Shown here: piece after piece, positions 22,439 to 39,012 of the stretch
Position numbering within the stretch: position 1 is the first letter of the stretch
Layout: each line of letters opens with the position of its first letter
Position numbers and translations under genes: made by a program
Assembly: GCA_964477065.1 (NCBI GenBank)
Contig: CAYZCU010000001.1
Span: 26,042 to 77,487, forward strand
Direction: 5' to 3'
Source: an uncultured Gammaproteobacteria bacterium
GTDB lineage: Bacteria; Patescibacteriota; Microgenomatia; UBA1406; HO2-37-13b
DNA length: 51,446 nt
Notes under the pieces: generated by a model
What the model was told of the DNA's origin: nothing
The model's input: the letters and a program-made list of their open reading frames with translations, nothing else
Databases searched by the model: none

Positions 22439-22476
22439 ACTTCGGGTGTTGCACACCCGATGTAGAACATCGGGAG
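22438..22476. repeat. nested-palindrome element, copy a (partial)
   Basis: AACTTCGGGTGTTGCACACCCGATGTAGAACATCGGGAG: two overlapping hairpins (CGGGTGT/ACACCCG and CCCGATGT/ACATCGGG) in the DUF218/msrB divergent region. Confidence 0.85.
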
Positions 22477-22927: not shown

Positions 22928-23854
22928 ATGCCATTGATTGAGGCTAGATTGCTCCCGATGTTGCACACCCGAAGTGCCCGCCGGGCCTTTCTCGCCTCAA
23001 CAGCATCTCTGCTTCTTTGCTTGCAAACGGCTCACGCCCAAAATGAGCCCCCACAACCTCCGTTGCCTCCATATGCTGGGCCTGTTTTTCAGCCTTCTCC
23101 AGAAGCCCAAATTGTCATCGACAGCATTGCGCAGAGATATGAGACGCGCACTGTGTTTCCTTCAACATGGGATATTGGCAAAGAGCGCTATCCACTTGAA
23201 CCTGCCTCTGCAAAAGTTCTGGAAGTCATTGCGTCTGCTTTTGAACATATTGAGCCACTTGTCGGCAGTGCGGATAGATCAAACGCCGAAGAACATACCA
23301 GCTATCCGCAGGAGCTTCGCATCTACACACTGCGCGGGTTGGCTGGATCGCCCGGTGGCGGATACGCTGATGATATGATTCAGCTGACGATTCCTGGATC
23401 AATCACCTTGCACGATCGAGCACCACGAGATATCGATGGGATTCAGCGTCAAGGGACCGTTGAAGATGAAATCGCACATGCGACGATGCACGAGGTGATG
23501 CATCGTTTTACGGTTTTGCATCCTGCACTTTATGAAGATTATGTGCGTCGCTTCTGGAAGCACAACAAGGATAATACGTGGTCGATCAAGGATCGGCGCA
23601 ACCTCAGTGGGTATCGTGGTGAGCCAAATCCATGGGAGATTTACGCTGATGAGCTAGCAAGTGTTTCGATTCCGATTCGTGATGCATTTGATCAGCGACT
23701 TGATGGAACACTATATGGGTATCGAGTGCTCAGTCAAGGTACAAAAATTTTCCTCCTTGCACATCCGGAACTACGACCGTGGGCACAGTCAAGAAATCGA
23801 TCGGATATTTTCACCTCGTTACCTCGCCTTTTTCTCCCGATGTGCACGAGGTGA
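22928..23854 (+). CDS. secreted hypothetical protein with HExxH motif (putative metallopeptidase)
   Basis: Signal-like N-terminus ...RSARRAFLASTASLLLCLQTAHAQ and HATMHEVMHRF. An alternative start at 22958 (MLHTRS) lies inside repeat copy b. Confidence 0.45.
   Translation: MPLIEARLLPMLHTRSARRAFLASTASLLLCLQTAHAQNEPPQPPLPPYAGPVFQPSPEAQIVIDSIAQRYETRTVFPSTWDIGKERYPLEPASAKVLEVIASAFEHIEPLVGSADRSNAEEHTSYPQELRIYTLRGLAGSPGGGYADDMIQLTIPGSITLHDRAPRDIDGIQRQGTVEDEIAHATMHEVMHRFTVLHPALYEDYVRRFWKHNKDNTWSIKDRRNLSGYRGEPNPWEIYADELASVSIPIRDAFDQRLDGTLYGYRVLSQGTKIFLLAHPELRPWAQSRNRSDIFTSLPRLFLPMCTR
22954..22975. repeat. nested-palindrome element, copy b (internally deleted, inside coding sequence)
   Basis: CCCGATGT-TGCACACCCGAAGT equals the full element minus the 14-nt segment ATAACTTCGGGTGT. 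It encodes ..PMLHTRS.. Confidence 0.7.
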
Positions 23855-24051: not shown

Positions 24052-24088
24052 CCCGATGTACAACATCGGGTGTGCAACACCCGATGTT
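24052..24088. repeat. nested-palindrome element, copy c
   Basis: CCCGATGTACAACATCGGGTGTGCAACACCCGATGTT in a divergent intergenic region. Confidence 0.85.
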
Positions 24089-27967: not shown

Positions 27968-28013
27968 GAGCTCAATCCCGATGTACAACATCGGGTGTGC
28001 AACACCCGATGTT
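27968..28013. repeat. nested-palindrome element, copy d (with GAGCTCAAT flank)
   Basis: GAGCTCAATCCCGATGTACAACATCGGGTGTGCAACACCCGATGTT. Its last base overlaps the TAA stop of the SGNH gene (28013..28015). Confidence 0.85.
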
Positions 28014-29122: not shown

Positions 29123-29168
29123 GAGCTCAATCCCGATGTACAACATCGGGTGTGCAACACCCGAAGTT
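29123..29168. repeat. nested-palindrome element, copy e (with GAGCTCAAT flank)
   Basis: GAGCTCAATCCCGATGTACAACATCGGGTGTGCAACACCCGAAGTT, ending 6 nt before the tspO -10 box. Confidence 0.85.
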
Positions 29169-36188: not shown

Positions 36189-37631
36189 CTACGACAATTG
36201 CAAGCGCTTCAAACATTCTGCCTTGCCAAGAATTTCCATACTTTCGTTTGTTGGCGGAGTGACTTTTTTACCTGTTAAGGCGACCCGCACAAGCATGAAA
36301 AATTTGCCAAACGCCATACCGACTTCCTGAGCAGTCCCTTGAAGATGCTCCCCAATGATATCTGCATGCCAATCCTTTTCATCAATCCGGTCAAGGTCCG
36401 CGACGATTTTAGCAAAAATATCTGCTTGGTCTGACAGCTCAACTTCATATGTTGTTGGTGCTTCAATGAAAAATCGGCAATAGGCATCATAGTCCTGCAA
36501 CGTCTTGAGGCGCGTCTGGACAAGCGGAACAGTATATCCAATCAATTCACGTGAATAGGCACCGTCTTTGTATGTCTGCGTATACTCATAAATATGATCT
36601 GCCAAGGCATCCGCACTCATCATCCGAATATACTCACCATTCATCCATTCCAGTTTCGTCAGATCAAATGCAGGTCCTGTTGGAGAGACATCCTTAAACT
36701 CGAAAAGATCAATAAATTCCTGGAGTGAAAAAATTTCTTTTCCCTCAGGATGTGACCAGCCCTGAAGACATAAAAAATTGCGAAGCGCATCAGGCACGAT
36801 CCCATGTTCCTGATACCACGAGATGTTTGTGTGCCCGTGACGTTTGCTCATCTTGCTCCTATCCATATTGCGCAGAATCGGGGTGTGGTTGTAGTTGATT
36901 TCAGGCCATCCGAAGGCTCTATACAATAACGCATGCTTCGGCCACGATGAAATCCACTCCTCTCCACGAATTGGATCAGTGATATTCATTAAATGATCAT
37001 CCACAACAACAGCAAGATGGTATGTTGCAAAGCCGTCAGATTTGAGTAACACTTGGTCATCAATGAGCGCCAACTCAAAATCAATGGGGCCACGAAGCGA
37101 GTCCTGAAGGGTAATGGTTTTTTTGCCATCAACCTCATCAGGGATTTTGAGACGAATGACATATGGCTCAGTGTTCGCCAGCTTTTCCTGAACACTTTCA
37201 GCGCTCAATGAACGACATTTCCTATCATACATCGGTGGCTTTTTCTCATGTTGCTGGGTTGCACGGACTTCATCAAGTCGCTCCTTTGTGCAAAAGCAGT
37301 AATAGGCATGCCCCTGTGCGACAAGATCCTCGGCATGCTTCTTGTATAAAGACAAGCGCTCAGATTGTCGATACGGGCCATACTCTCCCCCCATTCGCGC
37401 ACTTTCATCCTCCGGAATGTTGAGCCATTCAAGCGCTTTGTAAATGGCTTCCTCAGCCCCCTCAACTTTTCGCGTCTGATCCGTATCTTCGATACGAACC
37501 ACAAACACGCCTCCATGCTTGTGCGCCAAGGCGTAGTCAAAAAGAGATTGATACATCGTGCCAATATGAGGAAAGCCTGTTGGGGATGGAGCGATGCGGG
37601 TGCGGGTGGTTTTTTGAGTACGGGTGTTCAT
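36189..37631 (-). CDS. gltX: glutamyl-tRNA synthetase
   Basis: RIAPSPTGFPHIGT (HIGH) and KMSKR (KMSKS); 480 aa. Confidence 0.9.
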   Translation of the reverse strand: MNTRTQKTTRTRIAPSPTGFPHIGTMYQSLFDYALAHKHGGVFVVRIEDTDQTRKVEGAEEAIYKALEWLNIPEDESARMGGEYGPYRQSERLSLYKKHAEDLVAQGHAYYCFCTKERLDEVRATQQHEKKPPMYDRKCRSLSAESVQEKLANTEPYVIRLKIPDEVDGKKTITLQDSLRGPIDFELALIDDQVLLKSDGFATYHLAVVVDDHLMNITDPIRGEEWISSWPKHALLYRAFGWPEINYNHTPILRNMDRSKMSKRHGHTNISWYQEHGIVPDALRNFLCLQGWSHPEGKEIFSLQEFIDLFEFKDVSPTGPAFDLTKLEWMNGEYIRMMSADALADHIYEYTQTYKDGAYSRELIGYTVPLVQTRLKTLQDYDAYCRFFIEAPTTYEVELSDQADIFAKIVADLDRIDEKDWHADIIGEHLQGTAQEVGMAFGKFFMLVRVALTGKKVTPPTNESMEILGKAECLKRLQLS

Positions 37632-37681
37632 GTGAGTAGGATGAGCTAAATGTCCGCTTTTGGGCTTCCTGTCATGCTTGA

Positions 37682-37690
37682 ATTATAGCA
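37682..37690 (-). promoter_or_regulatory. extended -10 TGcTATAAT for gltX (about 44-nt leader)
   Basis: Reverse complement is TGCTATAAT. Located between repeat copy f and the gltX ATG. Confidence 0.45.
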
Positions 37691-37707
37691 TACGGTCAGC
37701 TAGTATG

Positions 37708-37772
37708 AGAGTTGATCCCGATGTATAACTTCGGGTGTTGCACACCCGAAGTTATACATCGGGATTGAGCTC
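37708..37772. repeat. nested-palindrome element, copy f (full length; perfect 51-nt palindrome 37715..37765)
   Basis: ATCCCGATGTATAACTTCGGGTGT-TGC-ACACCCGAAGTTATACATCGGGAT has 24-nt perfect arms. Flanked by GAGAGTTG on the left and TGAGCTC on the right. Confidence 0.9.
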
Positions 37773-37776
37773 AAAA

Positions 37777-39012
37777 ATGTCCCTTTCAGAACTATCATAC
37801 TACGTCAGAAAAATTGGACCTGTCGCGTTGGTAGGCTTCATAATGCTGATGATTTTTTACGTCATAATTACAACACTTTTATCACTCGCTCCGAAGACGT
37901 CACAACAGCAGACAAATGTCCCATATGCGCCACCGTTTGGGATCCTTGAACCAATCCATTTCGTGCATTCGATCAACTATCCATCAGACGTATCCTTCAC
38001 GATCGACAATATTGAGGGACGACCCATCACCACAGACACTGAAGCACTCGTTTATGCTGTCCCCTCAAGTCGAACGAAATTTGGCTATCAGCAATCATTG
38101 GCATTTATGGCAAAGGCAGTTGGCATCGATACTGAGACACAAAAGTATCAATTAAGGGGACTTAGCGCGCGCTATCAGGACGAACTGCGCACGTTGGATG
38201 TCGATATAACGACGTTTAATTTTGAATATGAGCTCAATTATAGGAAGACACCGACCATTTTTTCCCGAAGTGCAACACCCGATGTTAACACAGCCAAAGA
38301 GGAGGCAAAAAGCTTCCTTCGCAAGATGAATAAGTTTTCGCAATACCTTGCCCAGGGAACCCAAAATGTGATCTACCTATCGTATGATCCGCAAGTTGAT
38401 GTTTTTAATGTCGTTCAAACCCCAGAAGAAGCCAATGTTGTGGAGGTGGACTTTTTTGCGCCAAATCTCGACAACCACCCGGTGGTGTCGCCGACATATT
38501 TTAACAGTCATATCTTTGTCACCATGGTCTTCACACAAGATGGTCCTGTTGTGATCAAGTCACATGTTGCAAGCTTCGAACCTCAGACATCAATCCAAGC
38601 GGGACAGTCAGCGCCGGCCCAAGGGGCAGACGCCGTGCCAACTTCGGGAACGTATCCGCTCAAAACAGGTGACGAGGCATGGCAGGAGCTTATCACAGGC
38701 AAAGGTATTATTGTCTCACCTTCAAAAGGATCGACGAAAATCATTGTCCGAGAAATGTTTATCGGCTACTACGCACTTGAAGAATACCATCCGTACATGA
38801 TGCCCGTTTATGTATTCCTTGGGGATAATGGCTTTGCAGGGTATGTCTCTGCTGTGAAGAATGAGTTTGTCTCAAAGGTAGTCAAGCAAACAACCGCCCC
38901 GTCAGAGTATCCATTGCCAACTCTTGAAAGCGAACCGGCGACACCGACAGCTATGCCTGAACAGATAGAGACACCTATCCCAACAGAAGCTTCACCTGCA
39001 GAAAATATCTAG
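37777..39012 (+). CDS. hypothetical membrane-anchored extracytoplasmic protein
   Basis: N-terminal TM segment (IGPVALVGFIMLMIFYVIITTLL), large extracytoplasmic region, P/T/E-rich tail. An alternative start at 37735 (MLHTRS...) lies inside repeat copy f. Confidence 0.5.
   Translation: MSLSELSYYVRKIGPVALVGFIMLMIFYVIITTLLSLAPKTSQQQTNVPYAPPFGILEPIHFVHSINYPSDVSFTIDNIEGRPITTDTEALVYAVPSSRTKFGYQQSLAFMAKAVGIDTETQKYQLRGLSARYQDELRTLDVDITTFNFEYELNYRKTPTIFSRSATPDVNTAKEEAKSFLRKMNKFSQYLAQGTQNVIYLSYDPQVDVFNVVQTPEEANVVEVDFFAPNLDNHPVVSPTYFNSHIFVTMVFTQDGPVVIKSHVASFEPQTSIQAGQSAPAQGADAVPTSGTYPLKTGDEAWQELITGKGIIVSPSKGSTKIIVREMFIGYYALEEYHPYMMPVYVFLGDNGFAGYVSAVKNEFVSKVVKQTTAPSEYPLPTLESEPATPTAMPEQIETPIPTEASPAENI
38230..38286. 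repeat. nested-palindrome element, copy g (degenerate, in-frame inside a CDS)
   Basis: GAGCTCAAT, then 25 nt, then CCCGAAGT-GCAACACCCGATGTT. This is the same 14-nt internal deletion type as copy b. It encodes ..YELNYRKTPTIFSRSATPDVN.. Confidence 0.6.

Follow-up and report, generated by a model that had tools for sequence, protein, structure and literature searches.

To our knowledge, REP repeats and their RAYT enzymes have been studied almost entirely in Proteobacteria, with large copy numbers, and the literature that we searched yielded no paper linking REP/RAYT to CPR bacteria. The reference systems, also called REPtrons, include E. coli TnpA-REP/YafM with its REP/BIME repeats (4ER8) and the REPIN-RAYT systems of Pseudomonas (PMC3116915; PMC5581495; bioRxiv 10.1101/2021.07.10.451892), and the pattern described for such REP/RAYT systems is that each RAYT has a repeat of its own (PMC5581495; PMC3733652). 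A second described group, the TIRtrons or TIRYTs, consists of RAYT-like genes flanked by terminal inverted repeats that are unrelated to the GTAG-tagged REPs, and some of these repeats form moderately abundant families (Di Nocera et al., 2013; PMC3733652).

The locus considered here belongs to a genome of 855 kb (41 contigs, 43.7% GC; G000 below). Its GltX is most similar to sequences from Roizmanbacteria and Levybacteria MAGs, which identifies the host as a CPR bacterium of the Microgenomates type. Between gltX and a divergently oriented gene of the analysed window, a stretch of 51,446 nt from this genome, stands a palindrome (copy f) that we consider likely to be an array of four modules of a REP-like, species-specific repeat, one that belongs with a RAYT-like transposase of the Y1/HUH type encoded by a single-copy gene (C17:145-792). 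The features on which this reading draws are collected in Table 1.

Table 1. Coordinates of the palindrome, of other copies of the repeat and of associated genes and promoter elements. Positions refer to the window unless a contig is named; L-numbers denote related loci in other assemblies, and arrowheads give the orientation of successive units.
Feature	Position	Strand	Remarks
3-unit copy (<><)	22439..22474	.	between DUF218 gene and msrB; unit search
2-unit copy (>>)	22954..22975	+	5' end of next ORF; unit search
3-unit copy (><>)	24052..24087	+	upstream of RDD/TPR gene; unit search
3-unit copy (><>)	27977..28012	+	identical in independent JGI contig L116
3-unit copy (><>)	29132..29167	+	directly upstream of TATACT-N6-ATG; identical in L116
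gltX, glutamyl-tRNA synthetase	36189..37631	-	tRNA-synt_1c, E = 1e-96
gltX extended -10 box TGCTATAAT	37682..37690	-	ATG (37675) 6 nt on; identical in L111 and L112
-10-like box TAGTAT	37701..37706	+	just upstream of palindrome; TAGGAT in L111, TAGTAT in L112
Left arm ATCCCGATGTATAACTTCGGGTGT	37715..37738	.	unit 1 CCCGATGT 37717-37724 and inverted unit 2 ACTTCGGG 37728-37735
Loop/linker TGC, 3 nt	37739..37741	.	symmetry centre; repeat search
Right arm ACACCCGAAGTTATACATCGGGAT	37742..37765	.	unit 3 CCCGAAGT 37745-37752 and inverted unit 4 ACATCGGG 37756-37763
Flank motif GAGCTCAAT	37764..37772	-	also at copies 27968 and 29123
Membrane-anchored or secreted protein, family unassigned	37777..39012	+	hydrophobic anchor at start; start codon ATG 37777
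2-unit look-alike (..TIFSRSATPDVN..)	38264..38285	+	inside 37777-39012 coding frame; kept as protein in L111
RAYT-like Y1/HUH gene, 215-aa ORF	G000:C17:145-792		single copy; different contig from palindrome
2-unit inverted flanking copies	C17:66-87 (<<) and C17:827-848 (>>)		bracket RAYT gene
RAYT right-flank repeat, G000			CCCGATGTTGCACA / CCCGATGTTGC
RAYT right-flank repeat, L101			CCCGAGGATAAACA / CCCGAAGT
RAYT right-flank repeat, L115			CCCGATGTTAGAAA / CCCGATGTTAG
RAYT right-flank repeat, L114			CCCGACTCTCAAAA / CCCGACTCTAAAA

A repeat search returned one inverted repeat at this site, with 24-nt arms that are 100% complementary around the TGC centre, which bears out the perfect 51-nt palindrome described in an earlier, sequence-only reading of this DNA. 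That reading was also right to name gltX as a neighbour (Table 1) and to place the element in a divergent promoter region, both neighbouring genes having their start here. Its distances needed correction: the palindrome proper stops 11 nt rather than 12 nt before ATG 37777, and it begins 24 nt, not about 18 nt, from the gltX extended -10 box. The in-frame ATG that it reported at 37735 is a GTG codon, and this GTG is not a real start, because close strains have one A less before ATG 37777 and the frame is thereby broken. Outside the arms, the flank motif GAGCTCAAT has an imperfect mirror image, GAGAGTTGAT, at 37707-37716.

As single-stranded DNA the palindrome folds at -29.1 kcal/mol, compared with -4.9 +/- 1.7 kcal/mol for shuffled sequences (z = -14.4; 0 of 200 shuffles equalled it), and with RNA parameters it reaches about -43 kcal/mol. 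The region from 37550 to 37850 contains no terminator-like site and no T-run, and an intrinsic terminator was rejected as the identity of the element, since no T-run follows the hairpin and both neighbouring genes begin here. At gathering score, Rfam matched only two tRNAs in the window, and five repeat-bearing loci gave no match at E <= 0.1.

The membership of copy f in a repeat family, also proposed earlier, is supported by a census of the whole genome. Base composition predicts about 38 half-sites CCCGAWGT; the genome has 94, and 23 multi-unit loci (16 two-unit, 6 three-unit and 1 four-unit). Cross-species comparison defines the module as an 11-nt unit, (ACA)CCCGAWGT, followed by a 3-nt linker, so that units, whether direct or inverted, recur every 14 nt. 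The commonest copy, like both flanks of the RAYT gene, is made of two direct modules, and three or four alternating modules form hairpins. Copy f, with four alternating units and a perfect 24-bp stem, is the sole four-module array among the 23 multi-unit loci, and its description as the only complete version is to that extent true for the present genome. The accompanying view of the other copies as truncations or internal deletions of f holds in part. Copies do differ from f by whole modules, and the 14-nt "internal deletion" is real, a three-unit copy being a two-unit copy plus one inverted 14-nt unit; they are not truncations of f, however, because the basic form, conserved on either side of the RAYT gene of five genomes, is the direct repeat of two units.

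Aligned copies share a common core of about 26 nt, CTCCCGATGTTGCACACCCGAWGTTG, and many have a GAGCTCA-like motif a few bases further in. An exact 22-mer, searched with up to 2 mismatches, is found 15 times in G000; 40 relatives, three of them from the same genus, gave 0 matches, as did the reversed-pattern control. The two-unit form does not fold on itself (-0.6 kcal/mol, z = 0.1); three- and four-unit copies do (z = -3.7 to -14.4). The run of bases before the inverted unit is GTAC in four copies, GTAT in copy f and GTAG in one copy, with none in the two-unit copies; at the hairpin foot, neither GTAG nor CGTC is a constant tag of this family.

Two other family copies (27977 and 29132) are reproduced letter for letter in a JGI metagenome contig, L116. 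The strain that it represents is 97.5-99.7% identical to the window and has two segments replaced or inserted relative to it, at about 25.9-26.3 kb and 30.1-30.6 kb. The contig ends ~20 nt from the copy at 24052-24087, so the repeats may break assemblies. On the practical side, such repeats can thus interrupt metagenome contigs and also create false upstream start codons, of which GTG 37735 is an example.

The look-alike at 38264-38285 was rejected as an intergenic element or as the sign of a mis-called gene, since it is coding and is conserved as protein in L111. The flank motif GAGCTCAAT occurs before it, at about 38230, and G003 has an unrelated stretch, 24 nt longer, in that place; the look-alike may have been inserted long ago, in frame, into a linker that is variable. 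The possibility that "<<...>>" pairs form a MITE family with a common interior was likewise rejected, because their interiors are unique. One such inverted pair outside the window (G000:C5:13862-14705) encloses an orphan 212-aa ORF (C5:13991-14629) that has no Pfam or NCBIfam match and no homolog among 40 relatives. The outer flanks of this pair are nearly identical over ~29 nt, through the TATAAT box to the ATGs of divergent GT2 and sorbosone dehydrogenase genes. When the sequence that runs on from the repeat through the -10 box and ATG was compared within pairs, only the C5 pair was striking (score 17); similarity in the other pairs is mostly at background, which reflects the common leaderless promoter consensus, and the top score between pairs was 14.

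The enzyme to which we tie this family has one match in G000 and is thus encoded by a single-copy gene. Its ORF scores 27.2 bits against Pfam Y1_Tnp (cut-off 23 bits) and 47.4 bits (E = 1.8e-12) against NCBIfam REP_Tyr_transpos NF047646, below the 80-bit equivalog cut-off of that model, which marks it as a divergent relative; one source labels a homolog "REP element-mobilizing transposase RayT." Residues H87 and H89 of the HUH motif and Y147 of the sequence YIHRNP are invariant in a 16-sequence alignment. An AlphaFold model of the protein (pLDDT 87, pTM 0.84) has as its top PDB match 4er8_A (E = 8e-8, TM 0.65 on target), the E. coli RAYT bound to a REP hairpin, and the ISDra2, IS608 and IS200 transposases rank behind it.

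The same layout of RAYT gene and flanking copies is seen in L107, L101, L114 and L115. In L107 (Logan DRR274965) the copies around the gene are reproduced except for one W-position base. The L107 RAYT, 90% identical, has an in-frame stop in its N-terminal part, with a 177-aa product called, and may be a decaying copy. More widely, RAYT-like genes are present in 32 of 41 related genomes, and at six of the nine loci examined the RAYT gene is bracketed by inverted repeats of its own that end in small GC-rich hairpins. In the three genomes tested (G029, G018 and G020), the flanking repeat of the genome recurs at 8-12 dispersed places (reversed control 0). The genomes G014, G020, G029, G030 and G017 contain four to nine diverged RAYT-like genes each, 25-37% identical to that of G000, so that one small genome may house several RAYT/repeat pairs side by side.

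Evidence that enzyme and repeat belong together comes from five syntenic genomes, in which RAYT identity is 100, 90, 61, 51 and 46% and both flanks consist of a two-unit repeat with a 14-nt period. The gene order RAYT-integrase-permease-TGT, the permease being one for amino acids, is kept in L101 and L115, and the order RAYT-integrase as far as the short contigs of L107 and L114 reach; the single copy and the kept gene order argue that the enzyme is vertically inherited. Within the flanking repeats the CCCGA core is constant, and the other bases are species-specific, changing in parallel in both units and in both flanks (Table 1). The gap between integrase and permease holds three units in G000 and L101 and two in L115, and the gap between permease and TGT holds two in G000, three in L101 and none in L115, an empty site. 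At the TGT gene of G000 (C17:3089-3110) and of L101 the repeat separates the -10 box from the start codon, and a repeat-internal ATG is in frame with the TGT start (ATGTTGCACACCCGAAGT, giving MLHTRS; the L115 empty site reads TATAATgtcctgctATG).

In the species represented by L101 and L111, the repeat is present at each of the four C17 sites and at gltX, so that 5 of 5 comparable sites have it at the same position, which is more like a set of maintained sites than a mobile population. By this comparison, the repeat stays at its sites yet changes together with RAYT. A search for further orthologous sites by way of the RDD/TPR protein found only a near-identical strain, and the same-genus genome G001 was rejected as an empty-site comparison at gltX, its intergenic region there being 540 bp long with an extra small ORF and its GltX 62% identical.

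The gltX site itself can be followed through time. The database search found no record identical to this GltX, and relatives were gathered from its 98%-identical cluster. L111, whose GltX is 80% identical and whose background DNA identity to the window is 74-83%, has at the same position a different but again perfect palindrome, TCCCGAGGTTTAACTTCGGGTG-ATAAC-CACCCGAAGTTAAACCTCGGGA, and L112 (GltX 77% identical) has a degenerate multi-unit array there. The array has thus been present since before the split of species with 77-80% GltX identity and is old at this site, contrary to the earlier suggestion that f is the master or most recent copy. Among the 24 base pairs, 18 never vary, and in two both partners have changed, one pair going from U-A to G-C and the other from A-U to U-A. 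A covariation shuffle test on these three distinct sequences gave a weak result (49/500), and by our own estimate the chance that two right-arm changes would mirror two left-arm changes is about 5e-4. Symmetry kept through compensatory changes speaks for templated correction, through module overwriting or hairpin-templated repair (MutS is present in the genome), or for selection on pairing.

A more recent event is seen in L108, where module 2 is the exact canonical 14-nt unit TGTGCAACATCGGG, a state reached by three changes within 6 nt, and where no other difference from L110 occurs over 360 aligned nt. A single templated replacement seems to explain this patch better than three mutations arising independently, and the L108 state is the derived one, given that L111 shares ACTTCGGG with the window. 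Judging from these alignments, the gltX-site array is an old resident that is kept symmetric and is still edited module by module.

By analogy with E. coli TnpA-REP and the IS200/IS605 enzymes, the RAYT-like protein would act on single-stranded DNA with paired inverted modules, and it would add, remove or overwrite whole modules at sites that are already occupied. Rewriting of modules in place would keep the copies of one genome alike, and between species would let them drift with the enzyme. The cutting or moving of repeats by RAYT is putative and is modelled on these relatives. Several observations count against a REP/RAYT reading, namely the low copy number, the lack of a constant GTAG/CGTC tag and the NCBIfam score below cut-off. 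In addition, the commonest form, which also flanks the RAYT gene, has two units and does not fold, making it a poor fit to the classical hairpin-REP substrate.

In another reading, which we judge unlikely, the repeats are not a selfish mobile population but host-maintained, position-fixed arrays of 14-nt protein-binding modules, rewritten in place by a co-evolving, domesticated RAYT-like protein and acting at promoters or 5' leaders. Were this so, copy f would be a palindromic four-module element shaping the divergent expression of gltX and a surface-protein gene in a genome without -35 boxes.

The promoters around copy f indicate how an array might act locally. The block conserved across species includes the gltX extended -10 box and, on the opposite strand, the -10-like TAGTAT; the transcript start after the gltX -10 box is also identical in L111 and L112. 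Relative to gltX, the array is outside the core promoter, on its upstream side. If TAGTAT is used, transcription of the 37777 gene would start from about 37713, and its mRNA would begin with the palindrome as a 5'-terminal hairpin. We infer that the array most likely has its place just downstream of this conserved -10-like box and would thereby form such a hairpin, the conserved 4-of-6 box being the one piece of evidence for a 5' leader. The start codon at 37777, 11 nt after the palindrome, has no Shine-Dalgarno sequence, and the product of this gene has no Pfam match.

The start of gltX is shifted in the present genome. The arrangement TGCTATAAT-N6-ATG (37675) opens just a 9-codon ORF (MTGSPKADI and a stop), and gltX proper starts 44 nt later, at 37631, in another frame and without a Shine-Dalgarno sequence (minus strand, 37631-37690). 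In L111, L112 and G001 the equivalent leaderless ATG is the in-frame GltX start. The broken start is common to independent assemblies (it is seen in L108, and the aligned leaders of L109 and L110 are identical) and is therefore real; it suggests reinitiation after a leaderless mini-ORF. Across the whole of G000, 209 starts match the consensus TGnTATAAT-N6-ATG of extended -10, leaderless promoters, and in about 45% of crude gene calls an ATG follows a -10 box at a distance of 5-9 nt. Promoters in G000 appear to do without a -35 box, in agreement with the leaderless architecture of the earlier note, and a sigma-70 scan was uninformative here because it requires one.

Such a promoter landscape also frames the proposal, which seems to us quite improbable, that the modules are double-stranded operators for a sequence-specific protein, possibly the RAYT-like protein, and that copy f is a four-site operator/insulator of the divergent gltX and secreted-protein promoters. 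Nearly all copies do occupy gaps that hold a promoter (at least 8 gaps are divergent, 7 tandem and 1 convergent), but such proximity is expected anyway, because nearly every sizeable gap in this genome has a promoter, and just 6 of the 209 leaderless-type promoters with 6-nt spacing have a repeat. Many two-unit copies turn the same end to a -10 box and start codon at 2-7 nt, yet the distance from repeat to -10 box varies: it is 0-7 nt in some copies, many of the two-unit ones among them, and about 24-30 nt in others, or the repeat falls downstream of the -10 box. The genes that adjoin the copies are functionally unrelated (DUF218, MsrB, GDSL lipase, GT2, GT4, GSDH, XseA, glyoxalase, BacA, GltX and ribosomal proteins), and these unrelated neighbours together with the varying distance argue against a classical operator. 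Direct repeats with a fixed 14-nt period need no hairpin, and the persistence of sites at orthologous positions, with sequence changing in concert, would suit an operator; the equivalent repeats of relatives, however, are plain hairpins that flank their own RAYT genes. A role as a general promoter part or a substitute for the -35 box was rejected, given the 6 of 209 promoters and the varying spacing.

We regard it as very improbable that the repeats are sites of the tyrosine recombinase encoded beside RAYT and that inverted pairs 190-830 bp apart are invertible segments. An integrase-family gene follows RAYT in 4 of 4 syntenic relatives whose contigs reach it, but its identities of 83, 77 and 74%, against 61, 46 and 51% for RAYT, make it far more conserved than RAYT or the repeat, so that it does not track the fast-changing repeat, and an integrase stands beside 0 of 9 other RAYT-paralog loci with flanking repeats. 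The inverted units can be read as arms of roughly 10 bp round a 7-bp spacer, and several inverted pairs flank short segments; independent assemblies nevertheless contain no variant in inverted orientation, and the genome has two tyrosine recombinases, as expected for housekeeping Xer enzymes. It is extremely improbable that an assembly error produced the palindrome or that two shorter copies came together head to head by chance, for although assemblers can create long inverted repeats, two independent Logan assemblies from other runs (L109 and L110), of strains 95.5-96.1% identical to the window over 3.4-3.6 kb, reproduce exactly the same 51 nt, homologous variant arrays occur in L108, L111 and L112, and the chance expectation for matches to the arm sequence is 0.

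Our preferred reading, a REP-like repeat tied to a RAYT-like enzyme, can now be set against the described systems. The Y1/HUH fold and catalytic motifs are shared with IS200/IS605 elements such as IS608 and ISDra2, and recognition of hairpins in single-stranded DNA would be the expected chemistry. In contrast to those elements, the gene is here single copy and syntenic in five genomes, and its repeat is also scattered through the genome on its own. The two flanks match each other in inverted orientation instead of forming distinct left and right ends, and the adjoining gene is of the integrase family, with no tnpB-type gene. Identity as an IS200/IS605 insertion sequence was rejected on the single copy, the flanks made of one inverted repeat and the synteny.

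The likeness to REPtrons is closer. The gene for a Y1/HUH enzyme, single copy and vertically inherited, stands between inverted copies of a short repeat, and the same repeat is dispersed extragenically, is specific to its enzyme and co-evolves with it. Units alternate in orientation as they do in BIMEs, the hairpin doublet of copy f resembles a REPIN, and the best structural match of the enzyme is the E. coli RAYT. The differences lie mostly in the repeat. REPs are imperfect palindromes of 20-40 nt with a conserved GTAG (or CGTC) tag (PMC3733652), whereas here 11-nt units alternate with 3-nt linkers, no GTAG tag is constant, and the commonest form, found also around the RAYT gene, is a non-folding direct repeat of two units; the three- and four-unit copies do fold. 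Copies number 23 loci in a 0.85-Mb CPR genome, as opposed to tens to hundreds, and adjoin promoters rather than 3' ends. The hairpin doublet, which is the predominant replicating form in REPINs, is the rarest form here (1 of 23 loci, copy f).

The system behaves like a REPtron, and its best fit is the TIRtron/TIRYT variant (PMC3733652). As in that variant, inverted repeats without a tag bracket a RAYT-like gene and make up a family of low to moderate copy number in the same genome. The 14-nt modules, the CPR hosts and the persistence of orthologous sites with concerted change are absent from that description (PMC3733652). The system that we describe is of a known kind, with an unusual modular build, and its new aspects are the modular anatomy and the site-by-site evidence for rewriting in place. 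With a single enzyme and some two dozen arrays of 14-nt modules, it is minimal enough to be traced site by site across species, and the syntenic series directly shows the same sites being kept, whole modules being gained or lost and copies changing with the enzyme. This touches a question of the REPIN field, how populations of repeats stay matched with their RAYT over the long term, and suggests that in-place overwriting, and not only copying and decay, keeps the two matched.
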